In this document: positions 251-57,409 of the stretch, one piece after another
Layout of the letters: every line of letters begins with the position of its first letter
How positions within the stretch are numbered: the stretch's first letter is position 1
Source: a virus
DNA: 64,000 nucleotides
Virus record (IMG/VR): IMGVR_UViG_3300020048_000048
Coordinates: 1 to 64,000 of that record
Strand: one strand, 5' to 3'
Made by a program: the position numbers and the translations under genes
The notes under the pieces: model-generated
What the model saw: the letters and a program-made list of their open reading frames with translations, nothing else
The model's database searches: none
What the model was told of the DNA's origin: nothing

Positions 251-2236
251 TTAGACGGGTATTCTTGTACAAGGTAAGACCCAGAGTCTACCACTCTTAC
301 CGTAGTCATCCCTTGTTGACCCAGTCATAAAGCGCACAGACCAAGCGGTTTGGGTGCCAGCCTCTGAAGACGACCAACAATAAGTATATTGACCCGAAGG
401 TCCTTGTCCATCTGTTTTTATATAATTTAAAGTATATTTTCCTCCAGAAGTGTCATTGGCATCAACAATTTCCCTTTTGTAATATAAAAGATAAAGTTCA
501 TCCTTATTAGGTAAAAAGTATTGAGAACCTTGATCACGACACCATTTGTTTGCTGGTGCCTCATCACCGTAACCGTCCAGCACTGAACTATTGTAAAATC
601 CAGTATTAGGATCATCCATGGAGCCTGTATTAGGAAGTACAGTGTCAATATTTTGAAATCCCCATTGTTTTTGTGTTCGCTTGGTGGCTGGTGCACATGC
701 AAGCCAATATCCACCCATTTGTCCAAACACTATTGAACCATCAGGAAGACGAGTTCCTTCTGTAATTCCTGTAGTCGCTGTAGTTTGTGCACTTGTGTAA
801 GTACTCCAAACTCCCGTTGAACTTTTTGCTCTAACTCTCCAATAATAAGTAGTTCCAACAGTCAATCCACTAAAAGTATGTGTTATTTTAGAAGAAGTGC
901 TTTCACCACTGTCTTGAAGAACTGAACTGAAAGAACTTGAAGTTGATATTTGCCATTGTGAGCTTGCATGAGTTGCTCCACTTGGTGTGCTACTAAAAGT
1001 ACAACTTGCAGAAATAATTGTTTGATCAGATGTTGCACTTAAACCTGTTGGTGTATTAATAACATAATCAGTTGTTGCTTGCGGTCTCCCTACCGTATAA
1101 GAAGACCAAGCACCATTAGCGCCTTTATGTTTAACTCTCCAATAATAAGTGGTCCCAATAGTCAATCCACTAAAAGTATGTGTTATTTTAGAAGAAGTGC
1201 TTTCACCACTATCCTGAAGAATTGAACTAAAAGAACTTGAAGTTGATATTTGCCATTGTGAAGAATAATGCGCAATTACACCAGCTGGTGTACAACTGAA
1301 AGTTGAGTTCATTGTTACAGAAGTTTGATCTGAGGTTGAACTTAAACCCAAAGGAACATTAATTGTGGCACTTGTGGTTGCTTGCGCTCTTCCTGCTGTA
1401 TAAGAAGACCAAACGCCATTAGCACCTTTCATTCTAACTCTCCAATAATAAGTTGTATTTTCTGACAGACCGCTAAAAGTATAATTAGTTTTAGAAGAAG
1501 TGCTTTCACCACTATCTTGAAGTATGGAACTAAAAGCACTTGAAGTTGATATTTGCCATTGTGAAGAATAATGAGCAATTACACCAGCTGGTGTACAGCT
1601 AAATGTCGCATTTCCTGTAACACTACTTGTATTTGACGACTCACTTAAACCCGTTGGGGTATTAACTACAGGCATTTTAAAATAAAATACAACATAATTA
1701 GACCAAGTACTTTCTCCAAACGTTGAACCTTTGTGAAGTACTCTTGCTTTTATGGTCGTGTCCACAGACAAACTACTTAAATCAGGAGTCCATGATGTTT
1801 TTGAAGATGTACTGTTATACAAATTGGTAATCAACGTATCGCTGTTGTTTCTAATTTCCCAACTACTGCTAATATGAACATCAGATCCGCCGAAAACGGA
1901 AAAAGCACTGCTTGAAAAAACTTGACCACTATAAATATCGCCTGATGCAGTTGTAATTGTCGGTTGATTTATTTGCGCACAAACATAATCATCGGTAGTT
2001 AATCCTCGAACCTCATAACTGCCGTCACTGTTTTTCCCAACAGTTTTGAAAACATGAGTGTCAGATCGATACCATATTTTCCCAAAATTACCAGAATCAG
2101 CATTTCGGTCTGACGTTCTAATTTCAATTAAGTACTGATTTTGGCTTAGCCAAGTGCTAAGTAATAATGTTGAAACCACTTTTGAAGTAGAAGTTCCATT
2201 AATCTCTGTTGCAAAGTCAACTGGAATAAACTCCAT
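251..2236 (-). CDS. Virion fibre/adhesin with three tandem FN3-like repeats and a C-terminal Lcl/DUF1566-like C-type lectin domain
   Basis: Three ~100-aa repeats with SGLxxxTTYYWRV; C-terminus LPNKDEL...YCWSSSE...AW.V.F...K.....V.P.R; TAAAATAA box upstream. Confidence 0.75.
   Translation of the reverse strand: MEFIPVDFATEINGTSTSKVVSTLLLSTWLSQNQYLIEIRTSDRNADSGNFGKIWYRSDTHVFKTVGKNSDGSYEVRGLTTDDYVCAQINQPTITTASGDIYSGQVFSSSAFSVFGGSDVHISSSWEIRNNSDTLITNLYNSTSSKTSWTPDLSSLSVDTTIKARVLHKGSTFGESTWSNYVVFYFKMPVVNTPTGLSESSNTSSVTGNATFSCTPAGVIAHYSSQWQISTSSAFSSILQDSGESTSSKTNYTFSGLSENTTYYWRVRMKGANGVWSSYTAGRAQATTSATINVPLGLSSTSDQTSVTMNSTFSCTPAGVIAHYSSQWQISTSSSFSSILQDSGESTSSKITHTFSGLTIGTTYYWRVKHKGANGAWSSYTVGRPQATTDYVINTPTGLSATSDQTIISASCTFSSTPSGATHASSQWQISTSSSFSSVLQDSGESTSSKITHTFSGLTVGTTYYWRVRAKSSTGVWSTYTSAQTTATTGITEGTRLPDGSIVFGQMGGYWLACAPATKRTQKQWGFQNIDTVLPNTGSMDDPNTGFYNSSVLDGYGDEAPANKWCRDQGSQYFLPNKDELYLLYYKREIVDANDTSGGKYTLNYIKTDGQGPSGQYTYCWSSSEAGTQTAWSVRFMTGSTRDDYGKSGRLWVLPCTRIPV
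775..1670 (-). repeat. Three ~300-bp direct repeats encoding FN3 domains
   Basis: Recurrent cttgaagttgatatttgccattgtga and ctctccaataataagt at ~300-bp spacing. Confidence 0.85.
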
Positions 2237-2274: not shown

Positions 2275-3042
2275 TCAAAGAAGATTGTCGATATAATCGT
2301 CTGGCAATTCTAAAGCAGACTCAATATTTTTATTAACAATATCGTCAATCAACTTTGGCAAATTATAATCAGCCCAACTTTGAGTTTGTTCAAGAATATG
2401 CTTACCTTGAATCCCCGGATGCCACCATTTATTTGTTTGTTTTTCACTCATCACCCTAAACATTACAAACTGAGATGCAATTTGAACTTGTTTTCCATCT
2501 TCAATTTTAAATCTTCTTGATCGATACATTCCTTTTAAATCAGGATCATTTGTAATAAGTTCTTCCATAGAATGAACCTGACCATCATTCATGGTTTTAC
2601 TTCTCATAGCGCCATAGGATGGCTTTTTTAAAGCTTCGTCAATCTTTTTCTGTATTAAAAAAGATTTAGTGTTTGGGTTAGGTTGATACCCTTTCATTTT
2701 TTTCATTGGTATAATTAAATACTTAAAACCTTCTTTTGAAATTTTAGTTTTAGGTGATTTTAAATGACCTATTTTCATATCAAAAGCTCCAACCCCATCC
2801 TCTTGAGCGTTTGCCAACCAATTATCTTCATCTAACCCAACAATAATCATATCACCTTCGACCATAACCTCTAATGCATTTAAATATTCATCACGGGTTA
2901 GGTCAAGTTTTTGCTGAGCCAATACTTGAATTTGCTGTCTTAGAAATACAGGAATCATTTCAAGAGCAGTTTCAATACCCTCTTGCATCCCTATGCACAT
3001 TTTTAATTTACGATATAAAGTTTCTTTATCCAACTTCCACAA
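2275..3042 (-). CDS. Putative neck/tail-completion protein
   Basis: FDMK...KYLIIPM...FRVMSEK...WWHPG pattern of large myovirus neck proteins. Confidence 0.5.
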   Translation of the reverse strand: MWKLDKETLYRKLKMCIGMQEGIETALEMIPVFLRQQIQVLAQQKLDLTRDEYLNALEVMVEGDMIIVGLDEDNWLANAQEDGVGAFDMKIGHLKSPKTKISKEGFKYLIIPMKKMKGYQPNPNTKSFLIQKKIDEALKKPSYGAMRSKTMNDGQVHSMEELITNDPDLKGMYRSRRFKIEDGKQVQIASQFVMFRVMSEKQTNKWWHPGIQGKHILEQTQSWADYNLPKLIDDIVNKNIESALELPDDYIDNLL

Positions 3043-3478
3043 CTCGATACGGAACTAAGTTTCCGTCTGCAAGATAATTACAAAATTCTAAAGCAACTGT
3101 TGCACTCGAATCTAAAAGACCTTGCCAGTCATAAGGCAACCCATCACGAAAAATAATACTGCCGTCAGATCCAATTTTGGCATATTTAAAACCTTTTAAA
3201 ACCAAAGATTCTAAATTTACTTTTACTGTTTCAAAATAAGGGTAAATCTCCCTTATCATTACTTTACCGTCAATTTCTTTCCCCAATAATGCAACCATTG
3301 TTGTTTTATTTGGGTTGTAGATTAATTCAATTCTTTCTTTAGCTTTTTCAATGCTTTTGAAAGTTAACACACCAAAATTATCTGCTAAAATAAAATTGTC
3401 ATCAATTATCCCATAAGGAAAGTCATGATGGTAATTGAATTTTATATTTTTATTTTCGATAAATTTCGCTTCAAACAT
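3026..3478 (-). CDS. Hypothetical protein
   Basis: ORF with GGAGG RBS and an upstream sigma28-like promoter. Confidence 0.6.
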   Translation of the reverse strand: MFEAKFIENKNIKFNYHHDFPYGIIDDNFILADNFGVLTFKSIEKAKERIELIYNPNKTTMVALLGKEIDGKVMIREIYPYFETVKVNLESLVLKGFKYAKIGSDGSIIFRDGLPYDWQGLLDSSATVALEFCNYLADGNLVPYRVVEVG

Positions 3479-3500
3479 AAAAACCTCCCGTTTAAACCAC

Positions 3501-3527
3501 TTAACGGAAGATTTTTAAATTACTTTA
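3501..3527 (-). promoter_or_regulatory. sigma28-like promoter
   Basis: TAAAGTAA-N11-TCCGTTAA. Confidence 0.7.
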
Positions 3528-4006
3528 ATTTTATTTAGACTATTTTTGAACTTATTTAACAATTCTTCGTCATGGATTTTTATACTCGTTCCATTTGGAG
3601 TAATTAAAGTTCTTCCTTGTAATTTACTACCTTTTAAATTTAGGTGAGGGTCTCCTGCTGATTTTTTAAAAAAATCATGAACATCTTGATGTTTAACATT
3701 CATCATTCCTTTTTTCGGATGATTCACTGACATGGCATACATATTACCTTGAACACCACCTACATAATTATTTTTTACAGGAGGTTTTACATCGTCCATG
3801 TTTATTGTATCTTTTCCGCTGGAATCCCCAAATGGATCTGTGTCTTTAATTTTTGTTTGAGGTTTTCCAAGTGGTTGATAAATTAATTCAGATTTTCTTA
3901 CCTTCTTTATCAACAATTGCATCATTTGTATTACTTCTTTAGCATAATGCTCTAATGGAATTGAGTGATTACCATTCGCAACTAAATGATCTAAGAGTTT
4001 CTGCAT
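3515..4006 (-). CDS. Hypothetical protein, candidate internal head protein (VRKS motif)
   Basis: 163-aa ORF downstream of a late box; KVRKSE. Confidence 0.5.
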   Translation of the reverse strand: MQKLLDHLVANGNHSIPLEHYAKEVIQMMQLLIKKVRKSELIYQPLGKPQTKIKDTDPFGDSSGKDTINMDDVKPPVKNNYVGGVQGNMYAMSVNHPKKGMMNVKHQDVHDFFKKSAGDPHLNLKGSKLQGRTLITPNGTSIKIHDEELLNKFKNSLNKIKVI

Positions 4007-4010
4007 GATA

Positions 4011-4316
4011 TCACCTAAACCAATATATTTGTTTTTGGTCCAACTGGCTTTGCTTATGCTTAATAAGTTCGCTCATCTCATCAACCACTTGTTTCAAATG
4101 TTCGTGTTCACTTTTAATCAAACCTGAATTTTTTAAATAATCCCATTCCTTTTCCTGAACAATTCCGCCTCTTATTAAGATTGGAATATCCGAGACCATA
4201 GGCTCTCTTGTGTTTCTAATATCTTTATCATCACCAAAGAATTGAGTTTTTCCTTCATGATGAACACCTATTGTCTCTCCCTTACCATTCAATAAAATTT
4301 CAGTAGTATCAAACAT
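4011..4316 (-). CDS. Hypothetical protein, candidate internal head protein (LIKS motif)
   Basis: AGGAG RBS; TAAAATAA at 4333-4340. Confidence 0.5.
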   Translation of the reverse strand: MFDTTEILLNGKGETIGVHHEGKTQFFGDDKDIRNTREPMVSDIPILIRGGIVQEKEWDYLKNSGLIKSEHEHLKQVVDEMSELIKHKQSQLDQKQIYWFR

Positions 4317-4337
4317 ATTTGCTCCTTTTCTTTTATT

Positions 4338-4703
4338 TTACACAATAATCCTTCTTATTGGAATGACATAATTATATTCACTTTTATTTCTTGTTGAAAA
4401 AGCTCTGTTTGAAAAAGTTAAAGTATTTGCACTTGACGATGTTGACTCAGAAGACGACCAAATTCTTGAAGCATTTAAAGCAGTTAATGTATTTGCACCT
4501 CCAGAAGTATCTAAAGCGTCAATTAAAGTTCTTTGCATATATATGAGAAGTAATTCATTTTTAGAAGGAAAATAATAACCAATGCTTCTACAATAATTAT
4601 TTGCCTCAGCACTTGTAGGGTATCCGTCTAAAATAATACTATTTTCATAACCACTTCCCTTTATTTTAAGGTTTAAATAATTCATCAAGTTCGAACCCTT
4701 CAT
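4338..4703 (-). CDS. Stand-alone or truncated C-type lectin (Lcl-like) domain, paralog of the 251..2236 C-terminus
   Basis: ILDGY...ANNYCR...YFPSKNELLLIY..R..ID..DTSGG..TL...WSSSE...K....V.P.R. Confidence 0.65.
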   Translation of the reverse strand: MKGSNLMNYLNLKIKGSGYENSIILDGYPTSAEANNYCRSIGYYFPSKNELLLIYMQRTLIDALDTSGGANTLTALNASRIWSSSESTSSSANTLTFSNRAFSTRNKSEYNYVIPIRRIIV

Positions 4704-4986
4704 CTTTTATCAATTCTTGTTCTTTTTGAACATTTAAATTACGAACTTCGCCTTCTTTATCACTTTCAATTCGTAACCTGTGAAACTCAAATAACAGTTG
4801 ATATGGAGTTAGGTTATCAAAATAAGGATCAAAAAAACCTTTATTCAACCTAAATGCAACAAAATGTTTAATATTACGAAAAAAAGAATCAATAGGACTG
4901 TCTTCAGTATCCTGAAGCAACACAACTTCTAAAGCTTCTTTTCTTGCCTTTATATTAAGTGATAAAACTTCCTTCTCACTCAACAT
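4666..4986 (-). CDS. Putative tail assembly chaperone (second component)
   Basis: FRLNKGFFDPYFDNLTPYQLLFEF resembles myovirus tail chaperone motifs. Confidence 0.35.
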   Translation of the reverse strand: MLSEKEVLSLNIKARKEALEVVLLQDTEDSPIDSFFRNIKHFVAFRLNKGFFDPYFDNLTPYQLLFEFHRLRIESDKEGEVRNLNVQKEQELIKDEGFELDELFKP

Positions 4987-5758
4987 TTAACACAACTTCT
5001 TTAAAAGGTGTGTATGATAAGTTCATTCCAGTTAGGTATAACTTAGGGATAAACATTTCCCTTGATTTGTAATCCGCATCATAAATCCCGTAATACATGC
5101 AAACAACTTTTCTTTCTAATGGGGTTAAGTCTTCCATTAGCTGAAAAATCCCATTAGTTTGTTTTTTTTGAGGGGTGTTTATTGGTTTTTGCAAGTTTTC
5201 ACATTGCATCCCATCACCGCCTTGCCTTACATCCCTGTCAACAAGAACAGCAACGTTAGAAGGATACCTAACCACCCTTGCCTTTTCACCAATAGCATGA
5301 GTTAAAGAAGCTTTAAACTCGTATGTAATAAAAGTGGAAAAACATGCTTTCTCTGGTTTAAACCTTAGGTGAAAATCAGAGAACTTAATATAGCATTCTT
5401 GAACCAAATCTTCAAAATCCAAACCCCTATACTTGTGTATGTGAGCCAATTTAAAAGCAAGCTTCTCAACAGAAGCCCATAGTAGATACTTTTCATTATT
5501 ATTTAAATTTGAAATTTTTTCAAATAATTTAGCTTTTTCATGCTTTTTCAAAGCCAAATATCTTTCGGCATTAAGTCTTCTAAAAGCTTTAACCCATTCA
5601 GAAGGGATCTGCTCTTTCTCAATATAATCAGAATACTTGTAGAAGATCTTGCCATACTCTTCTTCTTTTGAAAGAAGTACGTCCTTCCAATATTGTTCTT
5701 TTAAATCTTCTGGAATTGCAATTCTTTTTTTTCTCTTAGCCACGAAAGTCTCCTTCAA
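4976..5758 (-). CDS. Phage sigma70-family RNA polymerase sigma factor
   Basis: Region 2: YRGLDFEDLVQE...FKPEKACFSTFITYE...ARVVRYP; region 4.1-like LTPLERKVVCMYYGI; region 4.2 HTH looks degenerate. Confidence 0.8.
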   Translation of the reverse strand: MKETFVAKRKKRIAIPEDLKEQYWKDVLLSKEEEYGKIFYKYSDYIEKEQIPSEWVKAFRRLNAERYLALKKHEKAKLFEKISNLNNNEKYLLWASVEKLAFKLAHIHKYRGLDFEDLVQECYIKFSDFHLRFKPEKACFSTFITYEFKASLTHAIGEKARVVRYPSNVAVLVDRDVRQGGDGMQCENLQKPINTPQKKQTNGIFQLMEDLTPLERKVVCMYYGIYDADYKSREMFIPKLYLTGMNLSYTPFKEVVLNVE

Positions 5759-6062
5759 AAAATGAAAGTTTGTATAAGATTATCAATTCGTCTTTATGAA
5801 CTACGATTTTGAAATCATTTAAATAGTTTGTGGATTTTTCGACCAACATTTGTTCTAAATTTGGTAAGTAATACGCCTTATTATTTTTTAACAAAGCAAC
5901 TATTCGACAATTTTCAATTTTAAAAACATCGTGAACAAAAAAATGATTTCCACCAAACTCTACAAAACCAGATTGAACATCTTTGATATTAAAAAAATGC
6001 AAAATATCGTCAAGGTCAATTCCATACCTTGAATTATTTTTCACAAACGTTAAAATCTTCAT
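5736..6062 (-). CDS. CheW-like protein (degenerate)
   Basis: KILTFVKNNSRYGIDLDDI...SGFVEFGGNHFFVHD resembles the CheW N-terminal strands. Confidence 0.4.
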   Translation of the reverse strand: MKILTFVKNNSRYGIDLDDILHFFNIKDVQSGFVEFGGNHFFVHDVFKIENCRIVALLKNNKAYYLPNLEQMLVEKSTNYLNDFKIVVHKDELIILYKLSFFEGDFRG

Positions 6063-6083
6063 AAAAATCCTCCTACAAACTAC

Positions 6084-6110
6084 TTAACGGACTAATTTAA
6101 AAAAACTTTA
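6084..6110 (-). promoter_or_regulatory. sigma28-like promoter driving the CheW-like/sigma operon
   Basis: TAAAGTTT-N11-TCCGTTAA. Confidence 0.75.
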
Positions 6111-6119
6111 ATTTATTTC

Positions 6120-6152
6120 TAAAGTTCTAAACCAAAAAAGCCGTTAAAATAA
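6120..6152 (+). promoter_or_regulatory. sigma28-like promoter overlapping a TAAAATAA box
   Basis: TAAAGTTC-N12-GCCGTTAA, then TAAAATAA at 6145-6152. Confidence 0.6.
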
Positions 6153-6178
6153 TTAAGGATAAAAACAGGAGGTGTTTT

Positions 6179-6523
6179 ATGGAATGTGCGAGTTGTAAAG
6201 ATAAAGACAAGGCATTAAGAAAACTGGAAATTCGAGTCCAAAGTCTTGAGAAACAAATCCGTAAAACAAAAAAGCTGGAAAGAAAGCTTAAGGCAAAAGT
6301 TGAAGCTGAAATGATGACAGACGTTTTTGAAGATGAGCTTATCGAAATAAAAGAGGAGATTCAAAAAATAGATGATATAAAAGAAGAGGAGACTGGTAAA
6401 AATCTCCTTAAGAAGTTAAAGTCTCAAATTTTAAATGGAGAAGTTTCAAAAGGTAAAGAAGATGAAAAAATTATAGTAGCAGGAAAAGAGTTTAGAGCTT
6501 CACCTAAATTAAAATTCCGTTAA
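6179..6523 (+). CDS. Hypothetical coiled-coil protein with N-terminal CxxC
   Basis: AGGAGG RBS, 114 aa. Confidence 0.65.
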   Translation: MECASCKDKDKALRKLEIRVQSLEKQIRKTKKLERKLKAKVEAEMMTDVFEDELIEIKEEIQKIDDIKEEETGKNLLKKLKSQILNGEVSKGKEDEKIIVAGKEFRASPKLKFR

Positions 6524-7086
6524 GAATAAATTAAAAAATCAACTCCATCAAAAGATACCACACCACGATACCTTTCTTCGCCAACTTGTTCCGTTTCACC
6601 ATGGTGAGCTAAGTCGATAGATCCAATTTTTATATTCCCTTCATTCATTTTTCTTACCAACACAAAAGGTCCAAATTTCTCTCTTGCATAACAAATCGAC
6701 CCGACTGTTTTGTCAACAAACTTTCGTGAAACATCCCACACTGGAGGCTCTTCATTTACAAAAAGTCTATCAAGAATTTGTGCCCATAAGGAGAACGTTT
6801 CATCCCTTGTGAGCTGAACATTTGAATGAGCTACGTCTGATAACTTCTGATACCAACCTAATACCATTCCTGCATAAGTTGGATGTTCAGAACACTTTAA
6901 AACAACTTCTTGAGAATACTTCCCCATAGAGTTGATAAATTCAGTTACATTATTTGAAGGCAATATTTGAACACCTTCCCATTCATTTTCCATAGAAACG
7001 ATGTCATGATGTTTTCCAAAATGATTTTGAAATTCTTCTTCAGGGCAAGACCCAACTCTCGCAGATTTAAAAAAAACTCGATTCAC
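6520..7086 (-). CDS. Hypothetical protein
   Basis: 188-aa ORF translationally coupled to the upstream gene. Confidence 0.6.
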   Translation of the reverse strand: MNRVFFKSARVGSCPEEEFQNHFGKHHDIVSMENEWEGVQILPSNNVTEFINSMGKYSQEVVLKCSEHPTYAGMVLGWYQKLSDVAHSNVQLTRDETFSLWAQILDRLFVNEEPPVWDVSRKFVDKTVGSICYAREKFGPFVLVRKMNEGNIKIGSIDLAHHGETEQVGEERYRGVVSFDGVDFLIYS

Positions 7087-7655
7087 ACAACACCTCCATC
7101 AATTTTTATAACCTTACCCTCTTCAACCTTCACCGTTCTTCTTCCATTAGGTCCTTGTATGTAAAAAAACTGACCATCAGTTCCTAATGCCTCTCCTTCT
7201 TTCAGCTCATTAGGTGGGAAGAATAAGATACCTAATTTTTGAGGAATATTTGTTGGCATTACTCTATTTGAATAAACACCTATATTACTTTTTAATTCTT
7301 CTGGGGTGAGTAGGTTTAAAGTGTTCATTGCGATTCTTTCGTCCAAACACTCTCCTAAAAAAACTAAATGTTCTTTTACCTTTTCTGGGAAATTTTCTTT
7401 GTGCTTCATGAAATAAAGTGGATAAGTTCTTGGTAAAAAACTTAAACCAATTAAATCCCTTCTTTTCATTAAAAAAGTAATTAACTTGTCAAACTCTTGC
7501 TCACCCTTTAATGGTAAAAAAAGTTCTAAATTAAAGTCCTTAGTTTCCGTTGCACACGATATAAATAACGTTCGGTGTGCAGAGTAATCTGTAAATCCAG
7601 AAAGGTCTAATGGCATTCTTCTGGACAACACATTTATAATTGCTTTTTGTATCAT
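7083..7655 (-). CDS. Hypothetical protein
   Basis: 190-aa ORF, ATGA overlap. Confidence 0.6.
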   Translation of the reverse strand: MIQKAIINVLSRRMPLDLSGFTDYSAHRTLFISCATETKDFNLELFLPLKGEQEFDKLITFLMKRRDLIGLSFLPRTYPLYFMKHKENFPEKVKEHLVFLGECLDERIAMNTLNLLTPEELKSNIGVYSNRVMPTNIPQKLGILFFPPNELKEGEALGTDGQFFYIQGPNGRRTVKVEEGKVIKIDGGVV

Positions 7656-8050
7656 TCTTCAACCCTCATGTTTTTGTAGTTTCCAATCAATTCTATCTCT
7701 TCTTCAAGAAGTTCTGTTGTTTCCATTTGACACCCACATTCGCACTTTTGATTCATGTAGTTGTCAAACGTTACAACTCTTTTTTCAAATTTATTACATG
7801 TTTTACAGTTATACATCAAATAATAACTACTTATGTGCCAATCAAACGGCACTGTTATGCATTGCAAAAGCTCTACCCAATACTTTGATGCATTTTCAAG
7901 AACAAAATATTTATCCTTAAATTTCTTCATAATCAAACGAACACCCATTGAGTTAATTTGATTATCACATAGAACATAATTCTCATCTTCAGCTTCAAAA
8001 TCAAGTACCGAATTTTCGTTTAACTTTTTTGGTAAAATAATTTTCAACAC
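7652..8050 (-). CDS. STAS-like plus zinc-ribbon protein
   Basis: INSMGVR (STAS phospho-loop-like), then YNCKTC...KCECG. Confidence 0.45.
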   Translation of the reverse strand: MLKIILPKKLNENSVLDFEAEDENYVLCDNQINSMGVRLIMKKFKDKYFVLENASKYWVELLQCITVPFDWHISSYYLMYNCKTCNKFEKRVVTFDNYMNQKCECGCQMETTELLEEEIELIGNYKNMRVEE

Positions 8051-8071
8051 ACCACCCTCCTTTTTGTTATT

Positions 8072-9052
8072 TTAAAACACTTTTGACAAAAAATCCCAGT
8101 CAAATAAGACGCCAACATAAGTTCCAATAAAGGCACTTGAAATACCATCACGTTCCTCACCAATAAAATAAGACACCCCAAGCTTTACAAAACCAATTCC
8201 TACAAAAGAATCGATTTGAGACTTCCATTGATTGTTAATAGAGATATTCCTCCATCCCCACCCAGCCCTATATGTATCTTCCAAAATAAGCGCAAAGTCA
8301 ATATTTACATTTGTTCCATTAACCTCTTTGTCCCGAAAACCCTTAATGCCGTACGCCGATATTCTTGTATAACCTACCGATGGCATAAAATGCATAATAA
8401 AGTCTTTGTGTTTAAAAAGAAGTCCAAGACCAATGCTTGCATTCATTAATCGCATTCTGTCAAAGACCGTTCCAAAATTCTTAGAAGCGTATTCACCTCT
8501 TACAGATGACATAGAGGCTTCAGCTCCAAAATTCATTTCTGTTTTAAACTCACTCGAACCTGTATATTGATACCTTACAATTTCAGAAGGTTTTAATGAA
8601 TCCCCCACTTTTTCAGTATCAACATTTTCCATATTAATAAACACAATTGCTGAAGTTTTTACAGAAACAATCTTGATATAAGAAGTTGCGGTATCATCCT
8701 TGATAACAATTTTTAAAAACAATATATAATCAACTCCAGTGAATTCTGAAAAATCACTTTTACTCATTAACTGGTCAAATTCTATTGATGTCAATACTTT
8801 TTCAATATCTAAAGACCTTTCAATAGGTTTAAATTTTCGATCTAAAATTTCCTCCTGCAATTCAGAAATTATAATGTCCAAGTCACAATCGTAATCCCCA
8901 ATAGTAACGCTTTTAGTGGCAGTTATCATTATAGTTGATCCCTTAGGGATATCCAACCCAGACAAACTTGCCATCGCTTTGTTACAAAGTAAAAATATCA
9001 CAAAAATTAAAAGCGCAAAAACAATACTTCCTGTAGAATCTTCTCGTCTCAT
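8072..9052 (-). CDS. Exported/outer-membrane protein (CsgG/LpoB-like domain plus beta-strand C-terminus)
   Basis: Signal peptide ending AMA; FKPIERS...GVDYIL...KIVSVKTSAIV; alternating beta strands ending in F. Confidence 0.45.
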   Translation of the reverse strand: MRREDSTGSIVFALLIFVIFLLCNKAMASLSGLDIPKGSTIMITATKSVTIGDYDCDLDIIISELQEEILDRKFKPIERSLDIEKVLTSIEFDQLMSKSDFSEFTGVDYILFLKIVIKDDTATSYIKIVSVKTSAIVFINMENVDTEKVGDSLKPSEIVRYQYTGSSEFKTEMNFGAEASMSSVRGEYASKNFGTVFDRMRLMNASIGLGLLFKHKDFIMHFMPSVGYTRISAYGIKGFRDKEVNGTNVNIDFALILEDTYRAGWGWRNISINNQWKSQIDSFVGIGFVKLGVSYFIGEERDGISSAFIGTYVGVLFDWDFLSKVF

Positions 9053-9636
9053 TGGATGCGTCCTCCAGTCGCAATGACCGCCTTTTCAATATCTTCAAGA
9101 TTGTACAAAATCTCGTTAAAGTCTTTTGACTTTATATCAAAGCCATAATATTTAAAATCAATAGAAATTATTTGGTCATTAAGTAGAATTGTAATTTTTG
9201 AAACCTCTTTCTCTTGTTCATCATGTTTAAAGTTGTTAAAATTTGTTGTCTTTACCTTCTTATCTGAAGTTGTGTACTCTATTTCATCAATAAAATACGA
9301 ACTCAAATCCGCCTCGCCATAATCTTCACGCTTAACCTTCAGCCCAAACAACACACCTTTCAGTAACTTTAACTTCTTTACAGAAGTTATGATATTCTCA
9401 TCTTCCCTTATAGCATCTTCAAGAAGATTTGCAAGCTTTATTTTCAATTCCTTTGCCTGTTTTTTTAACTTCATCTTTACAATGGGTTTAAGTTTTTTTA
9501 CAACTTTCGTTATGTTGCCTTCCTCATCTTGGTAGAACCCTTCTGTAACTGTATCCCAGTCAACAAAACCAACACTGATATTCTTTGCGTTTAAAATCTC
9601 TTCTGGGATTATTCTTGTAACATACATACGCACCAC
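9049..9636 (-). CDS. Hypothetical protein
   Basis: 195-aa ORF after a sigma28-like promoter. Confidence 0.6.
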   Translation of the reverse strand: MVRMYVTRIIPEEILNAKNISVGFVDWDTVTEGFYQDEEGNITKVVKKLKPIVKMKLKKQAKELKIKLANLLEDAIREDENIITSVKKLKLLKGVLFGLKVKREDYGEADLSSYFIDEIEYTTSDKKVKTTNFNNFKHDEQEKEVSKITILLNDQIISIDFKYYGFDIKSKDFNEILYNLEDIEKAVIATGGRIQ

Positions 9637-9659
9637 CTTTCTTTTTTAGCCTAACTTAC

Positions 9660-9686
9660 TTAACGGCAGTTTTAAAAAAAACTTTA
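9660..9686 (-). promoter_or_regulatory. sigma28-like promoter
   Basis: TAAAGTTT-N11-GCCGTTAA. Confidence 0.75.
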
Positions 9687-9714
9687 AAATAATATTAAAG
9701 AAGGGGATTTTATC

Positions 9715-9996
9715 ATGATTATCACAACATTAGATGACTTACAAGATTTTATCGTTAAAAAGTTACTAAAAGAGCAATTAAACTTACAATCTTTAGAATT
9801 TTCACTTTTAAAAAACAATATCAAAAAGAGTCATTTTAGGGAAATAATTACAGAACTTGACAAGTTTAACTTGAGAGACCGTGATTTGGAATTTCAATTA
9901 AACGATCTTGAATTTGAAGAACTTGAGCTTTTAAAAAAAATAGATAGTCAAAATAAACTTATTATGGAGCTTTTAACAAAATTTACGAAGTCTTAA
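9715..9996 (+). CDS. Hypothetical coiled-coil protein
   Basis: 93-aa ORF; TAAAATAA at 9685-9692. Confidence 0.55.
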   Translation: MIITTLDDLQDFIVKKLLKEQLNLQSLEFSLLKNNIKKSHFREIITELDKFNLRDRDLEFQLNDLEFEELELLKKIDSQNKLIMELLTKFTKS

Positions 9997-30570: not shown

Positions 30571-33225
30571 TTAAATCTCCCTTAGTGCAGAAACGTCTAA
30601 GTGAATAAACTCGGTGGTTTCTACAGGTTTTATTGCAATTTTTGCAACCCTTAAGTTACCTTGAGTTTCAACTACGGTTGGCTTGTAGCCATCTAAAGAT
30701 CCATTTCTTGCAAAAGACCCCAGAATTGAATCAACTGCTTTCGCTAACTGGTCATTAGGAAGATCGGTATTTCTTACACCAATATAATTGTCCAAAGTAA
30801 CACGAACAGTGTCAATAATTTCATCAATGGCAAAGATTACATTTGATCTCTCATAAAACCAAGCCTTAGGGTCGTTGGTTTTTGATTGAGTTGTACAATC
30901 TGGAGAAACCATCTTCCAAGTTCTTGACTTAAGTCCAAAAACCAACAAGCCAGATCGAATTGCTAATTCAATTTGACCACGGTCTTCATGATAGAAGTCA
31001 AATTCATACGATGAAGTAAATAATGACTTTGTTTTCAAATGCCTTACTTGTACAATATTGTACGCCTTGTTTAAAGCGGAAGTTCCAAGTATGCTTTGTG
31101 CACGTCCAGTTGCCAACATTGCTTGAATCATCCATGGAGCAAACCATTTTGAAACACCATTTGCACCAACAGCTTTTACCTGTTGAAATGTGCATGAAGC
31201 CCTTGGTGAAAACAATGTTCCAGCCATTTTTATTGAATCTTGAAAACTCCCGTCAAAACTTAAAAGTGCCAATCTCTCTTTTTTATTTTGAATATTGGAA
31301 GCTGTATTAACAGAAGACAATATCATACTATTTACTGAAAAAATATCATAAGACGATGTTTGGTCAGTGACTTCATCCATAATATCTTGATCAGCATCTC
31401 TTGAAAAACAGGAAACTACTTGACGCACAGGCATTTTCATTGTTCGTTCCATAGCACCAAGAACATCTTCGTTAGAAGTTCCGTTTATAGTTCCGCCAGT
31501 TAAAAATCTTGGATTAGACATAAATAATGGAAGCCCACTTTTTTGAGGAGCTGTTGAGAAAAATGATAGTTGTTCAGTTCCTTCAAAAGCACTTTGAAAT
31601 TCGTAAAAATCTCTCTTAATACCAACAAAAGATTGTGACCCATACGTTGAAATACCCGTTACAACTTCATCCAGATGTTGTGGAGATGTTCCTGCGAACT
31701 CAGGGTTTTCATCTGCATATAAATCTGGGATTGACTTTAAATAAGTTGCCAAATGTCGGAGTGTTCCAAACTTTAACAAACTAATACTTAATGAAGGGAT
31801 ACTTCCATCGCTAAAATTTACAGTAAGTATTTTGTTTTTTATTGTTGCAGTTGCAGACCCAACACCTGCCCAACCCAACTTAAGCATCCATTTTCCACCA
31901 ATAGAGGCTGTTGGAACTCTTTCTGTAGTTTCTGTATTTAGAATATCACACATAACTGTGTACTCTTTTTCAGAAGAAATATGATTCCTTGCAACTGGTG
32001 AAGACACATTTGCTTTAAGGTATATTAGAAAATCAGACTGACCCTCTAACGCAACCTTTGCAACATTAACACAAGATGCTTTTAATTTTAAATAAACTTC
32101 GTTAAACGTAATTTTTTCAATAATATAAACGCCAACATTTTCTTTATTGGGTCCAGCTAATTTTGATGTTAATGGAATATAAATAAATTCACCAACTTTT
32201 GGTTTTACTTTAAATACGCTGTCGCTTAATACAATTTTAAGCTGAGTAGTTAATTTCTCAACAGAAGCTGAAGCAACAACTGCCTGAGCAACATCCATCA
32301 CATTATTTGAAGACCAATTTAAAAATGCTTGAGGGTTTGATGAATAAACCTCTAAACAGTTTGAGGCTCCAAGGGGAGTCTCTTTTAATGACTTAACTTT
32401 AACAGGAGAGTAGCATTCTATGTCACTATTATCTAAATCAACTGTTTCAAAAACAACACTTCCAGATAATGGAACTGTTGAAATTGCCGTAGCAGTAACT
32501 CCTGTAACAATAAATTTAATCCCATTATAAACTAAAGTTGATCCAACTTCAGGAATAGCTACAAAAACTGAGGAAGTAAAGGTTACATTTTTATCTGCTT
32601 GGGAAATAACAACACTGCCTCCATCAACATCAAAAAGTTCAACTTTAGATGAAGTGATTGAAACCCTAGGATCACTTAAAGCCTCAACCACCGTAATATC
32701 GTCAATAACAGATTGTTGACCAATCCTCTCACCCATAACAGCAACTTTAAAGTCGGTTGCTTCACCAAGCCATGTATAAGTAGCTTCTGGTTTTTTTTCT
32801 TCATCAACTTGTTGAATTTGAACTCTTAATGCATTTCCTGAAAGTCCAAAACCCTTTGAAAGTAAAATCCCGTATGATGTAGGGTTTTCAATAATATAGT
32901 AAGCTTGAGTAGACCGATTGGTCTTTGCGACATATACAGTTGGCTGAGGTCCTGTAAATACATTATCAGCCTGTTGAGAGAATAATTGATAAGAAGCGTC
33001 TACAATTGGACCAGCTTTATACACAGCTTTTAATGATTCAAAGTTTGTGAAGTAATTCTGTTGCGGGTCAACAGAGTCGTAAGCAGGACCATCTACAGCT
33101 TCACCAACAACAACCACTGTTTTTGGTGAAGGTACAACGTTTAAAAAACTATCTTGTACTTTTAACGTAGAGTAGACCGCTGGAATTACCATTGGAACTC
33201 CATTAATATTAACTTCTAATGACAT
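30571..33225 (-). CDS. Contractile tail sheath protein
   Basis: IPAVYS...VVVVGEAVDGP N-terminus; FLTGGT..G, KKER, YIG and IKPVETTEFI C-terminal sheath motifs. Confidence 0.85.
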   Translation of the reverse strand: MSLEVNINGVPMVIPAVYSTLKVQDSFLNVVPSPKTVVVVGEAVDGPAYDSVDPQQNYFTNFESLKAVYKAGPIVDASYQLFSQQADNVFTGPQPTVYVAKTNRSTQAYYIIENPTSYGILLSKGFGLSGNALRVQIQQVDEEKKPEATYTWLGEATDFKVAVMGERIGQQSVIDDITVVEALSDPRVSITSSKVELFDVDGGSVVISQADKNVTFTSSVFVAIPEVGSTLVYNGIKFIVTGVTATAISTVPLSGSVVFETVDLDNSDIECYSPVKVKSLKETPLGASNCLEVYSSNPQAFLNWSSNNVMDVAQAVVASASVEKLTTQLKIVLSDSVFKVKPKVGEFIYIPLTSKLAGPNKENVGVYIIEKITFNEVYLKLKASCVNVAKVALEGQSDFLIYLKANVSSPVARNHISSEKEYTVMCDILNTETTERVPTASIGGKWMLKLGWAGVGSATATIKNKILTVNFSDGSIPSLSISLLKFGTLRHLATYLKSIPDLYADENPEFAGTSPQHLDEVVTGISTYGSQSFVGIKRDFYEFQSAFEGTEQLSFFSTAPQKSGLPLFMSNPRFLTGGTINGTSNEDVLGAMERTMKMPVRQVVSCFSRDADQDIMDEVTDQTSSYDIFSVNSMILSSVNTASNIQNKKERLALLSFDGSFQDSIKMAGTLFSPRASCTFQQVKAVGANGVSKWFAPWMIQAMLATGRAQSILGTSALNKAYNIVQVRHLKTKSLFTSSYEFDFYHEDRGQIELAIRSGLLVFGLKSRTWKMVSPDCTTQSKTNDPKAWFYERSNVIFAIDEIIDTVRVTLDNYIGVRNTDLPNDQLAKAVDSILGSFARNGSLDGYKPTVVETQGNLRVAKIAIKPVETTEFIHLDVSALREI

Positions 33226-33311
33226 AAAATGCCTCCTTAAAATGTTCAATTTATTTTAATAAATTAAACTATTGATTTTTTTAACTTATTGTTTTTTAAA
33301 GATTGTTTTTT

Positions 33312-34227: not shown

Positions 34228-35721
34228 TTAAAGATTCCCTTGACCAACGTTATCCAATAGTGCATACGTTTTTGGTTTTGGAAGCATCATACCCCAAATT
34301 GAGAAGTAACAAGATTGATTTGCCAAAGCAACTTGTGCAAAGTCTCGTTTCATCATCATTTCGCCCATGTGAACAACTTGTGCTTTAGTTTGTGACGCTG
34401 ATGTTGGGCGAAGAATTATTGTATCCAAACCGCCAATCCAAGCATCTTTGAATAAAATACTTGTTCCACCAACTTGTGCTTTAACATAACCAGAAAACTG
34501 TACATCACTTGCAGATTTTGCTGAAAAATAAATTTCAAAAGCTTCTGCATCTGATTGATCAACTAAATCAATTTGAATACCACTTCCATCACTTGCTAAA
34601 GTAATTTCTTGGCGAGCCACATACGAACGGTTACCACGATTAATTGCAATAACAGCAATATAAGCTTTACCAGCAGGAAACATTGTTCCTTTTGCTAAAG
34701 ATTCTGTTAATGTAAAGCTTGGTGTAGAAATAATTCCACCAAAACTATTGTTAATCATAGGTGCAACAGGTCTTCGCACTGGTTTGTACTTAAATATAGA
34801 AGATATAAAACTCATAGGACCTTGTGATCCATTAATTGAAAAACCACCATCAACCGAAACATCAGTACCACCAGAAACAGCGTTTTGTTGACTTAGAACA
34901 GAACGTGCCATTGGTAATAATGAATTGCGCAATTCATTAAGTTGATTTGGAGTTGAAAGGGCTTCACCAATTTGACCAAATGAGTTTCTAACGCTCGTTT
35001 GAATATTGTTAATTGCTTCCATAGAAAGTTCACCACCACGAAGGTCATGCACAATACTCATGTCGTTTCCTGCGCCAGCAAAATCACTGGTCCAACCAAA
35101 TCTTTCTTGCTCACCAGTTCTAATCATTTGTTGAAGACCAACAACTTGACGATCAAAAAGGTCATTACCAGAACCATTTTGGAATTTACCAATGCTTGTA
35201 AGTTTTTCACCACTTGCATCAAGAAAACTATCACAACCTAACATTGCGATTTTTTCATAGTGTTGCACAAGTGCGTATGTTGCAGACTTATCAGCCATTT
35301 GAACGATATCAGATGAATATCCACCTGCATCATTTATCATTTCAGCTACTGTTCCAATTGTTTGAGTTACTGCATACATATGAAGACCAACAGATGCAGT
35401 AATTACTTGCATAGAAACATCAACACCGTGAACACCTTGTCCAACTGAATAGTCAGCATTCCCAGAGCCAATAGCTTTGGAAGTTTCTACTCTATAGGAG
35501 TGAACTAATTGATTTACTTGTTTTGTTTTAATTCCTTTGAAAACTTTGATTTCATCGTCTGTTGCACAAACTGAATAAAGTTCAGCATCAACAGAATCAA
35601 TTGCCATAGACTGTAAACCAGTCTTACCGTGGTTCGCTCCACCAACTGATGGTGCGGAATTGAATGATTTTAGAACTTGCATTGTTGTTGCGAGTTCCTT
35701 TTTTAACGCTTCAATAGTCAT
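34228..35721 (-). CDS. Major capsid protein
   Basis: 497 aa; N-terminal propeptide ending VLKS as in Herelleviridae-type capsids; strong RBS, late box and downstream sheath operon. Confidence 0.75.
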   Translation of the reverse strand: MTIEALKKELATTMQVLKSFNSAPSVGGANHGKTGLQSMAIDSVDAELYSVCATDDEIKVFKGIKTKQVNQLVHSYRVETSKAIGSGNADYSVGQGVHGVDVSMQVITASVGLHMYAVTQTIGTVAEMINDAGGYSSDIVQMADKSATYALVQHYEKIAMLGCDSFLDASGEKLTSIGKFQNGSGNDLFDRQVVGLQQMIRTGEQERFGWTSDFAGAGNDMSIVHDLRGGELSMEAINNIQTSVRNSFGQIGEALSTPNQLNELRNSLLPMARSVLSQQNAVSGGTDVSVDGGFSINGSQGPMSFISSIFKYKPVRRPVAPMINNSFGGIISTPSFTLTESLAKGTMFPAGKAYIAVIAINRGNRSYVARQEITLASDGSGIQIDLVDQSDAEAFEIYFSAKSASDVQFSGYVKAQVGGTSILFKDAWIGGLDTIILRPTSASQTKAQVVHMGEMMMKRDFAQVALANQSCYFSIWGMMLPKPKTYALLDNVGQGNL

Positions 35722-35747: not shown

Positions 35748-35755
35748 TTATTTTA
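35748..35755 (-). promoter_or_regulatory. Late-type TAAAATAA box for the capsid gene
   Basis: Same box at a similar distance before sheath (33251), fibres (2261, 40104, 63844), protease (56000) and MuF (53614). Confidence 0.65.
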
Positions 35756-40655: not shown

Positions 40656-40682
40656 TAAAGTTTTTTAAAAAAAATCCGATAA
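40656..40682 (+). promoter_or_regulatory. Near-canonical sigma28 promoter firing antisense into the head-tail adaptor gene
   Basis: TAAAGTTT-N11-TCCGATAA with no + strand ORF downstream. Confidence 0.6.
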
Positions 40683-40685
40683 TGA

Positions 40686-41552
40686 TTATTTTCCACCTGC
40701 AACTCTGATTTTTACACCTTTGGAGTGTGCTTTTAGGAGTAATTGTTTTTGTTGCTGTATAACTTTTTGCAACATTTCAATTTTCTGAATCAACAATTGA
40801 GGACCAACTAATGAAGCTGATTGACTTACTCCATCAATCGACACCGAAGTTGAATTAAACGGCGTAATATGTGCATGATAATCTATTAACATATTAACTG
40901 TCGCTACGTCTAAAATAAGTTTTACAAGGTTTGCAGGAAGTTTTTCAGAATCAAAACCGTACCTAAATCTTACTTTAATTGACATTGGTCTATTATTTCC
41001 CATTGGAGTCATATAAAGAGGTGACGCATCTGGATAAGCATTAAATGCGAACTTATTCAAAAACGCACCAATACTTGGACTCATGGTAATTTTATTACGA
41101 TGAAGAACAATCCATGATGGAGGAATCTCTCTTGAAAAAAAAGGAGATCCTGTTAAGGCATGAGGAAAACAAATTTCCACACCCATAATAGCCGTAACTG
41201 GGAATCTGTTTAGATCAATAGGAACCTGATCATCATAATATCGATGCTCATAAATATAAGAGTGAACTTTTTCAGCTTCTTGTTCTGAAAATGATGTTTC
41301 CAACTCCTGTTCAAGCTGTGTCACTGCGTTACTTAAATGCAATTGTAATAATGGCTCATTACTCTTCATTTCATTTACTAAAGCAGAAACTCTATCCAAA
41401 CCCATAAATGCAACTTCTGCAAAATCATTTAGTGTTGGAAATGGTAAAAACCTTGTAATTCCACTTTCTATTTGACTGTTTTTAACCATAATTGGGTAAC
41501 TATGGTATTCATTATAATAAGCTCCAACACTATTTGAATAATCAATTCCCAT
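40686..41552 (-). CDS. Head-tail adaptor/neck protein
   Basis: LNRFPVTAI...IKVRFRYGF...LPANL...SVSIDGVSQS. Confidence 0.65.
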   Translation of the reverse strand: MGIDYSNSVGAYYNEYHSYPIMVKNSQIESGITRFLPFPTLNDFAEVAFMGLDRVSALVNEMKSNEPLLQLHLSNAVTQLEQELETSFSEQEAEKVHSYIYEHRYYDDQVPIDLNRFPVTAIMGVEICFPHALTGSPFFSREIPPSWIVLHRNKITMSPSIGAFLNKFAFNAYPDASPLYMTPMGNNRPMSIKVRFRYGFDSEKLPANLVKLILDVATVNMLIDYHAHITPFNSTSVSIDGVSQSASLVGPQLLIQKIEMLQKVIQQQKQLLLKAHSKGVKIRVAGGK

Positions 41553-57382: not shown

Positions 57383-57409
57383 TAAAGTTATTTTTAAAAG
57401 TTCCGTTAA
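57383..57409 (+). promoter_or_regulatory. sigma28-like promoter
   Basis: TAAAGTTA-N11-TCCGTTAA. Confidence 0.75.

Follow-up and report, generated by a model that had tools for sequence, protein, structure and literature searches.

Which sigma factors turn on which genes in a bacteriophage that encodes, within one operon, a sigma factor of its own and a small protein predicted to fold like the chemotaxis adaptor CheW? The question is raised by a minus-strand locus at positions 4666–6110 of IMG/VR virus record IMGVR_UViG_3300020048_000048, whose first 64 kb (64,000 nucleotides, nt) were analysed and are called the window below. We propose tentatively, giving it a little less than an even chance, that the locus serves a large myovirus-like lake phage as a transcription-switch operon of the middle type, and that the switch has four steps. 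First, the operon would be fired from one of 48 near-identical promoters of sigma-28 type (class A), most likely read by a FliA-type sigma factor of the host. Second, the coupled gene chain, which is seen directly in the sequence, would deliver the CheW-fold protein, a sigma factor that combines an RpoD-like sigma-2 domain with a degenerate region 4 and has no region 3.1–3.2, and a third, acidic protein of 106 amino acids (aa). Third, this sigma factor, unable to read a -35 element, would direct host core RNA polymerase to TAAAATAA boxes (class B), with a logic like that of T4 gp55. Fourth, and this is the weakest step, the CheW-fold protein would act as a protein–protein adaptor.

The phage and the layout of the operon

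The phage record is linear, with a length of 120,614 bp and a GC content of 32%; CheckV puts its completeness at 73%, so that about 27% of the genome is missing. PHROG and Pfam scans find in it a myovirus-like virion set (tail sheath, baseplate wedge, major head protein, portal, prohead protease, terminase), and a set for replication and nucleotide metabolism (DNA polymerase III alpha, a UvsX-like recombinase, a DnaB-like helicase and others, the anaerobic ribonucleotide reductase NrdD, dCMP deaminase, RNase H, RNA ligase). No near relative was found among 50,697 deposited phage records; the phage DNA, together with relatives 85–97% identical to it, is present in aquatic, freshwater and lake metagenomes from several studies.

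The operon is a minus-strand chain in which a sigma-28-type promoter is followed by three open reading frames (ORFs), each overlapping the next:

6084..6110, minus strand: operon promoter of class A (TAAAGTTT, 12 nt, CCGTTAA), with its end 21 nt upstream of the ATG at 6062
5736..6062, minus strand: 108-aa protein with a predicted CheW fold (P0001), Shine–Dalgarno sequence AGGAGG; an orphan family with five representatives
4976..5743, minus strand: divergent factor of the sigma-70 family, 255 aa when counted from the GTG at 5743 (longer ORF 4976..5758)
4666..4986, minus strand: acidic 106-aa ORF, isoelectric point 4.85, third in the translationally coupled chain; no family found

The promoter reads TAAAGTTTTTTTAAATTAGTCCGTTAA on its own strand. 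The likely start of the sigma gene is the GTG at 5743, which has AAGGAG 6 nt upstream, yields the 255-aa form that is also the protein-database entry, and overlaps the stop codon of the 108-aa gene by 8 nt (GTGGCTAA). An 11-nt overlap joins the end of the sigma gene, whose stop codon lies at 4978–4976, to the ATG (4986) of the 106-aa ORF. Sigma-70-type promoters show no excess in the region 3000–9800 (28, compared with 27.4 ± 5.0 in shuffles), and none of them precedes the operon.

A uniform set of sigma-28-type promoters

A sigma-28-like promoter in front of the CheW-like gene had been claimed by the initial annotation; it is present at 6084–6110, with matching -35 octamer and spacing, and it belongs to a large set of which about one member would be expected by chance. 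CCGTTAA occurs 19 times in the window as against 4.6 ± 2.1 in shuffles, none of 100 shuffles reaching 19. The two-part pattern T[ATC]AAG-N14-17-CCG[AT]TA[AT] is found 48 times in the 120,614-bp phage, 18 times in the window, compared with a mean of 1.04 and a maximum of 3 in 50 shuffles. These class A sites are near-identical to one another: the typical site is TAAAGTTT-N12-CCG[T/A]TAA, and alignment gives the 30-nt consensus aaaa..tTAAAGTTTTTttaAAAa.ttCCGTTAAGta. Among the 48 sites the -10 element is CCGTTAA in 37, CCGATAA in 8, CCGATAT in 2 and CCGTTAT in 1, the canonical CCGATA thus being present in 10. CCGTTAA sites number 45 in all, of which 34 are intergenic, in a genome that is 92% coding by a crude gene call, and 32 sit 18–70 nt before the start of a gene on the same strand. 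Another class A site lies before a recombination gene:

57383..57409, plus strand: class A site, 29 nt before the UvsX-like recombinase gene 57439–58575

According to PMC2859248, the sigma-28 consensus of Escherichia coli is TAAAGTTT-n11-GCCGATAA. Measured against this consensus, the operon site agrees in 8 of 8 positions of the -35 octamer, in spacing, and in 6 of 8 positions of the -10 octamer (TCCGTTAA compared with GCCGATAA), its core CCGTTAA being one base, A to T, away from CCGATAA. PMC12784957 places the -10 element of the Pseudomonas aeruginosa fliC promoter as (-15)GCCGATAA(-8), with the A at -11 flipped out, and states that the TAAAG of the sigma-28 promoter is read base-specifically by region 4.2 of sigma-28. 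In 37 of the 48 class A sites a T stands at the place of that flipped-out A. Class A therefore shares with the promoters of FliA, SigD and WhiG exactly the same -35 octamer and spacing, together with 6 to 8 of the 8 -10 bases, the core CCG[A/T]TAA always being kept. It differs from a bacterial sigma-28 regulon in being far more uniform, and in driving phage replication and small genes rather than flagellar genes.

Two further arrangements of class A sites were observed. A site with a canonical -10 element (TAAAGTTT...TCCGATAA) lies at 40656–40682 on the plus strand, between two minus-strand genes, and points antisense into the late fibre-like gene 40686–41552; it might give rise to an early antisense RNA against that gene. 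A contig end, TCCGATAAGG (run X5), was considered as an independent class A site and rejected, because it is probably the phage's own site 40656–40682. In addition, 8 of the 11 class A sites whose -10 element is not CCGTTAA cluster in G000:C1:104231-119359, the small-ORF region at the right end; this cluster holds 7 of the 10 canonical CCGATA sites, including an identical pair at 110682 and 111029 and two more at 115597 and 115881, and may represent an immediate-early subset.

A sigma factor with a recognisable region 2 and a degenerate region 4.2

The description of the second gene as a sigma factor with a clear region 2 and a degenerate region 4.2 agrees with what we find, with the qualification that region 2 scores below curated cut-offs. 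Pfam Sigma70_r2 gives an expect value (E) of 5e-4 and 20.2 bits compared with a cut-off of 24 (22.7 bits in a search of the phage's own genome), and NCBIfam TIGR02937 matches residues 94–223 with E 2e-10 and 40.6 bits compared with a cut-off of 42.9. The protein also matches the sigma-factor family phrog_351 (E 9e-15), SigA chains of the PDB (E 1e-7, residues 88–175 aligned) and the RpoD-type NCBIfam models (E 2e-11 to 1e-7), the best of which, at 2e-11, are cyanobacterial RpoD-type models. The libraries agree on a recognisable region 2, the scores being below the curated cut-offs of the single models.

In an alignment with seven distant RpoD-type proteins (A3), the phage sigma keeps a region 1.2-like helix within an N-terminal part of 90 residues, regions 2.1–2.4, region 3.0 (RVVRYPSNV) and region 4.1; its GLDFEDLVQE is near-identical (G-[LV]-[DT]-FEDLVQE) in the seven relatives. 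In A3 the phage sigma lacks regions 3.1–3.2, with about 50–65 residues, depending on the relative, missing between 3.0 and 4.1. In region 4 only the 4.1-like stretch LTPLERKVVCMYYG aligns, and a short tail stands in place of 4.2. This tail ends at the recognition helix and holds no arginine, where all seven relatives and two FliA proteins have at least one, and Pfam finds no match to Sigma70_r4 or r4_2 in the protein. As judged from its alignment, region 4.2 of the phage sigma is degenerate.

The protein is not FliA-like: its score on the FliA_WhiG model (TIGR02479) is 14.8 bits (E 0.018, residues 107–146 only) compared with a cut-off of 189.6, and true FliA proteins of other genomes score 249–269 bits. 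Nor was a second sigma factor found in the 120.6-kb record by Pfam, by PHROGs or by a Sigma70_r2 search of the phage's own genome. A word-based homologue search returned only the query itself and, at E up to 10, nine distant RpoD-type proteins; no related loci were found in viral contigs. Group 4 sigma factors, of extracytoplasmic function (ECF), share with the phage sigma a two-domain build, a promoter class spread over the whole element and tight coupling to small neighbours; unlike them, the phage sigma carries region 1.2 in its N-terminal part of 90 residues and, as groups 1 and 2 do, a region 3.0 motif, and its best families are cyanobacterial RpoD-type, with TIGR02937 below cut-off.

Class B boxes and the division of the genome into two gene sets

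The TAAAATAA boxes named by the initial annotation are also real, with an enrichment weaker than that of CCGTTAA: 38 copies in the window compared with 19.6 ± 4.6 expected. In the whole genome 24 of 62 copies are intergenic and 20 of 62 lie 14–45 nt before a gene on the same strand. No conserved element was found upstream of the box. It contains TAAAAT, in which we read T-12, A-11 and T-7 of a TATAAT-type -10 element. Two examples precede major virion genes:

35748..35755, minus strand: TAAAATAA, 26 nt before the major head protein gene 34228–35721
33251..33258, minus strand: TAAAATAA, 25 nt before the tail sheath gene 30571–33225

The two classes serve different kinds of genes. Class A sites lie before the sigma operon and before the genes for DNA polymerase III alpha, NrdD, UvsX, two helicases, a ClpP-like protein and a methyltransferase. 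They also lie before many small ORFs, among them those densely packed at 100–120 kb. Class B boxes stand before the genes for the head protein, the sheath, fibre-like proteins and further large proteins of the virion, and before an operon that ends in the terminase gene. A script sorted the 96 genes that have 18 nt or more of gap upstream into 31 A, 18 B, 2 both, 4 near-B and 41 neither; it did not flag the CCGATAA form, which several genes labelled 'neither' carry. At two sites a class A -10 element and a TAAAATAA box overlap or abut (6141–6152 of the window, plus strand, GCCGTTAAAATAA; G000:C1:96666-96680, minus strand, CCGTTAATAAAATAA), and the genes behind them may be served by both promoter classes.

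This division recalls the late transcription of phage T4, in which gp55, a sigma factor with region 2 only, acts with the co-activator gp33 on a -10-only late promoter, TATAAATA. The likenesses are several: a sigma factor without a usable region 4, which would be made earlier in infection; small proteins of about 110 aa encoded beside it; a late promoter consisting of a single A/T-rich 8-mer near -10, with no -35 element, before virion genes; and a myovirus with T4-like baseplate, sheath and UvsX genes. Unlike gp55, the phage sigma keeps regions 1.2, 2.1–2.4, 3.0 and 4.1, and a tblastn search with it in the 50,697 phage records gave six weak matches, none of them T4-like (no comparison with a gp55 profile was made). 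The early and middle promoters also differ, being of sigma-28 type here and of sigma-70 type with MotA boxes in T4. The cascade of Bacillus phage SPO1 runs from host sigma A to gp28 and then to gp33 plus gp34. Like SPO1, the phage has several sharply defined promoter classes and a small gene directly upstream of the sigma gene, co-transcribed with it from a promoter of the preceding temporal class; unlike SPO1, which begins on the main sigma factor of its host, its first visible class is of sigma-28 type, and only one phage sigma is seen.

The 108-aa protein has a predicted CheW fold and no detectable CheW sequence signature

The ORF 5736..6062 had been called CheW-like, and three structure searches confirm the fold, with the CheW sequence signature absent. 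The AlphaFold2 (AF2) model, built from an alignment of five sequences, is all-beta, with a predicted local distance difference test score (pLDDT) of 84.8. Foldseek against the PDB finds CheW or CheA-P5 in 15 of the 15 matches listed up to rank 17 (E 1e-3 to 1e-2, probability 1.00, template modelling (TM) score 0.47–0.60), and the next match has E 0.33. VIA, an all-against-representatives comparison that is independent of Foldseek, also places CheW/CheA-P5 structures in its top five positions (Z 9.5 for the CheW of T. tengcongensis, 8.2 for the P5 domain of CheA-289, then 8.0, 7.7 and 6.9), aligned over 102–108 of the 108 residues; its next match has Z 4.0. An independent Atlas model matches two clusters in which every member has PF01584, with TM 0.76 and 0.71. 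The protein, as modelled, has the fold of CheW and CheA-P5 (PF01584), two intertwined five-stranded beta-barrels that here extend across the 108 residues. It differs from CheW in being some 30–40 residues shorter (108 aa compared with 143–175 aa), and it differs also in that a phage encodes it, beside a sigma gene and away from any gene for CheA, CheY or a receptor.

At the level of sequence a relation to CheW is not detected. The protein matches no Pfam family at E up to 1, no NCBIfam model and no PHROG convincingly, and its four relatives match no Pfam family at E up to 0.01. Comparison by hhalign of the phage-family alignment (A1, five sequences) with an alignment of five CheW proteins from three genomes (A4) gives a probability of 5.7% over 24 N-terminal columns, which is a weak test because both alignments are shallow. 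The invariant residues of A4 are R59, G60 and D106, the Arg-Gly after the third strand and the Asp in GxxVDxV; they have no counterpart among the invariant residues of A1, which are F6, F23, F36, F42, L66 and P67. In a manual strand-by-strand alignment neither the Arg-Gly nor the Asp is kept in the phage family, whose sequences show G, D, N, E or N in place of the Arg and Pro in place of the Asp.

The family itself is small. HMMER over 1.84 billion representatives retrieved nine proteins including the query, of which four are true full-length relatives (104–112 aa); the other four were rejected as relatives, since they match through choline-binding-type repeats only. A word-based homologue search found the query alone, and no loci related to the small-protein alignment were found in viral contigs. 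The contigs that carry the relatives P0004, P0007 and P0008 measure 10.6, 2.9 and 6.7 kb. A metagenome scan added one contig of 1,082 bp, which is uninformative on synteny as it ends after residue 54 of a relative, and whose ORFs have no tblastn match in the phage.

What the CheW-fold protein may do

Because we know of the CheW-like fold only from chemosensory proteins, the fold argues for chemosensory partners, and the modelled protein could dock on CheA-P5, CheW or receptor interfaces of the host, a possibility that we regard as somewhat doubtful. That it is instead a partner of the sigma factor or of RNA polymerase appears rather unlikely to us, and what likelihood is left goes to some other function. 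A role in the switch would fit the loss of the CheW signature residues and the close link of the gene to that of the sigma. The initial annotation went further and proposed that the protein jams the chemoreceptor arrays of a motile host; the fold is the one finding in favour of this, whereas the signature residues are lost, the hhalign comparison is negative and the coupling also allows a role in transcription.

The alternative that survives best, unlikely as we judge it, takes the protein out of chemotaxis and makes it a cofactor or regulator of the adjacent sigma, either a co-activator that replaces region 4 or an anti-sigma factor directed at the phage sigma or at host FliA. The shared promoter and the 8-nt overlap of its stop codon with the sigma GTG speak for such a role, as do the loss of the CheW signature and the order and sizes of the genes (about 100 aa, then sigma), which recall SPO1 genes 33 and 34. 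Since the sigma has no working region 4, it may also need a surrogate. Set against this are the chemosensory associations of the fold; the all-beta, CheW-like build of the protein, where T4 gp33-like co-activators are helical; and the frequency of gene overlaps throughout the phage. Because overlapping genes are common in this phage, the coupling of the two genes is weak evidence for a partnership. The one locus with a relative, on the 1,082-bp contig broken off at residue 54, carries no information on neighbours, and a complex prediction for the sigma and the CheW-fold protein (score 0.00, mark 0.32) counts neither way.

It is less probable still that the likeness to CheW is merely that of a shared double beta-barrel of SH3-like units, the protein having an unrelated role such as nucleic-acid or virion binding. 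The lack of any CheW sequence signal would fit, and so would the modest figures of the Foldseek matches (E about 1e-3, TM 0.5–0.6, root-mean-square deviation 4–7 Å), a model drawn from only five sequences, and the remark accompanying VIA that best Z values of 7–8 are common for models without a clear match. A coincidence of this kind does not readily account for CheW or CheA-P5 filling every listed Foldseek row and the first five VIA places, nearly full-length and with a clear gap after them, nor for the PF01584 clusters reached by the independent Atlas model.

T-variant promoters in bacteria that have FliA

The T in most class A -10 elements raises the question of whether FliA-dependent promoters of bacteria ever have it. 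Bacterial genomes were searched with TAAAGTTT-N11-13-CCGTTAA, with the reversed pattern as control. Spirochaetota gave no signal (16 single matches in 401 genomes, below the reversed control at about 42). In a phylum with a cyanobacterial locus, FliA scores over cut-off in 216 of 401 genomes, many of them of 1.7–2.3 Mb. One class of that phylum, with 151 genomes, contains 35 CCGTTAA-promoter matches, 32 of which fall in the 38 genomes known to have FliA (control 6); the other 113 genomes, whose FliA status was not examined, hold 3 matches and 21 control hits. Five FliA-positive genomes together have 13 CCGTTAA and 15 CCGATAA sites, with 1 control hit for each version. Of the 28 sites examined, 20 lie 14–56 nt before an ORF, a short distance to the start codon that class A shares, and orthologous genes in different FliA-positive genomes share the same promoter. 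The products behind these sites include MgtE_N-domain proteins, HD-GYP-type phosphodiesterases, an SLT transglycosylase, an amidase with LysM and, below cut-off, a glucosaminidase-like protein; autolysins and motility-linked genes are typical of the SigD regulon of Bacillus subtilis. The gene behind one bacterial sigma-28-type site encodes a protein longer than 528 aa, for which no family match was found.

Where FliA is present, A or T at the -11 place is natural use. Because CCGTTAA is used beside CCGATAA in a FliA-positive lineage, the reading of class A by a host FliA is plausible. The lineage is a candidate host group. None of the 151 genomes searched in this class yielded a member of the 108-aa protein family. 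The phage TnpB was considered as a host clue and gives no host call, because its best bacterial matches are at most 54% identical and are spread over many phyla; Melainabacteria was rejected as a name for the candidate lineage, since the nearest named relative of the phage sigma (a Melainabacteria RpoD/SigA) is only about 33% identical to any protein of the five candidate genomes.

Which factor reads which promoter class

Class A is most likely read by a FliA-type sigma of the host, because the only sigma detectable in the phage is not FliA-like. That such a host sigma drives the early and middle genes, the operon included, and that the phage sigma then reads the -10-only late boxes, is in our view possible, with doubt somewhat outweighing belief. 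The initial annotation had proposed the same chain from FliA through the phage sigma to the late boxes; the anatomy of the operon, the two gene classes and the T variant in a FliA-positive lineage speak for it, the assignment of sigma factors to promoters being a proposal. Neither a lack of the CheW fold nor an intact region 4, which the initial annotation had named as findings that would speak against it, was encountered.

Several observations weigh against this order of events. The T at -11 in most class A sites could mean a reader other than canonical FliA. The AF2 model of the phage sigma (pLDDT 49.9, and 37–55 in the region-4 part) is too poor to judge region 4, whose state is for that reason taken from sequence only, and the net charge of region 4 does not discriminate (-2.2 in the phage sigma, -5.0 to +2.8 in functional relatives). 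The 27% or so of the genome that is missing could encode another phage sigma, a homologue of FliA or an RNA polymerase of the phage. The candidate lineage is not an identified host, and in five tested genomes of about 1.9 Mb (G424, G427, G454, G472 and G505) that have FliA and FlhA (E about 1e-215 for FlhA), Pfam Flagellin_N finds no match even at E 0.05, which points either to a highly divergent flagellin or to a different role of the apparatus. No RNA runs holding the operon region were listed, the runs that contain the phage being DNA. Lastly, a sigma gene behind a class A promoter is the layout expected of a self-activating two-domain, ECF-like sigma, and many ECF -10 elements contain CGT, as does that of class A.

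This last layout leads to the strongest rival for the promoters, which we nevertheless hold to be improbable: class A would be read by the phage sigma, which would thus switch on its own operon after priming by host FliA or by leaky transcription, and TAAAATAA would be read by another factor, such as the host main sigma with a phage activator or a factor not seen here. Its build, a sigma-2 domain, a short linker and sigma-4, is ECF-like, and TIGR02937 falls little below its cut-off (40.6 bits compared with 42.9); alternative sigma factors that activate themselves do lie behind the promoters that they read; and promoters as uniform as class A are typical of phage-specific factors. The T at the -11 place in 37 of 48 sites would also suit a reader distinct from canonical FliA. 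In PMC12784957, however, TAAAG is read by region 4.2 of sigma-28, and the class A -35 octamer and spacer are exactly those of sigma-28, whereas the phage sigma has a short region 4.2 with no arginine and no match to a region-4 model, and only 14.8 bits on FliA_WhiG. Because the mixture of T and A also occurs in a FliA-positive bacterial lineage, a special reader of class A is not needed. Class A moreover serves the earliest-looking genes, which would have to be read before any phage protein exists.

A three-tier cascade of SPO1 type, in which class A is read by a phage FliA-like sigma or other factor from the missing part of the genome and the sigma studied here is the late factor, draws on the linear, 73% complete record and on the precedent of two-sigma cascades (SPO1 gp28, then gp33/gp34), and we consider it the least probable of all, as Pfam, PHROGs and the Sigma70_r2 search of the phage's own genome revealed no second sigma in the 120.6 kb, and as the early-looking small ORFs at 100–120 kb already have class A promoters, with no other first-acting promoter class seen.

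Returning to the reading by host FliA, its widest form describes a phage of motile anaerobic freshwater bacteria that runs its whole early and middle programme on the flagellar sigma of the host and its late programme on its own sigma, and that makes a miniature CheW as an effector, which would plug into the chemosensory array or into the polymerase and sigma machinery and would be a new class of phage effector. With all its parts together we think this unlikely. Were the early and middle programme on the flagellar sigma, the phage would develop only in cells whose flagellar regulon is on; the 48 non-late sigma-28-type promoters would then tie infection to the motility state of the host, an arrangement that would suit flagellum-attaching phages. 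Sigma cascades of phages are textbook material, and in the known ones, to our knowledge, infection starts on the main sigma factor of the host. Among the titles and abstracts returned by our literature searches we found neither a phage-encoded CheW-fold protein nor phage early genes on sigma-28 promoters. Class A would also provide a very uniform natural promoter set for the study of sigma-28 specificity at -11 (A or T). The CheW-fold protein would be a new kind of host-takeover protein if it acts on chemoreceptor arrays, and a new use of the CheW fold if it acts on sigma or polymerase.

Neighbouring features and other observations

The 106-aa ORF that closes the coupled chain ends in ...EGFELDELFKP, and its Atlas matches are hypothetical phage proteins only. 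We take this tail to be loosely reminiscent of the sliding-clamp-binding tails of T4 gp33 and gp55 and of the bacterial QLxLF motif. Downstream of it the operon extends to a class B box, and upstream the intergenic region 6063–6178 holds two divergent promoter-like sites, one of them that of the operon:

4338..4703, minus strand: 121-aa ORF, the last gene before the next promoter box, with a weak Lcl_C match and a phrog_4245 match
4333..4340, minus strand: TAAAATAA class B box, 16 nt before ORF 4011–4316; the downstream limit of the operon
6120..6152, plus strand: divergent promoter of ORF 6179–6523, class A TAAAGTTC, 13 nt, CCGTTAA; its -10 element runs into a TAAAATAA box (GCCGTTAAAATAA)
6179..6523, plus strand: 114-aa Lys/Glu-rich ORF, divergent from the operon; no family found

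Elsewhere in the record, two genes look like those for ClpP or a prohead protease; the late head module contains the first (53638–54156 of the window, minus strand), and the second follows a class A promoter (G000:C1:85890-86486, plus strand). Outside the window, the polymerase III alpha gene is immediately followed by a gene (G000:C1:67272-68327; L002:4272-5327, plus strand) for a HisKA-type histidine kinase with a fused receiver domain (Response_reg and HATPase_c), whose top full-length PDB match is Leptospira LvrB (E 1.3e-12). Also outside it are the TnpB (IS605 OrfB) gene mentioned above, at G000:C1:97693-98850 on the plus strand behind a class A-like promoter (TCAAGG...CCGTTAA), and a serine recombinase (resolvase) gene near the right end, at about 115,900–116,500 on the minus strand. 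Within the window, the fibre-like ORF 251–2236 contains two nearly identical stretches of about 100 nt, 300 nt apart (883–890 and 1183–1190, minus strand), which belong to an internal repeat of 100 residues.

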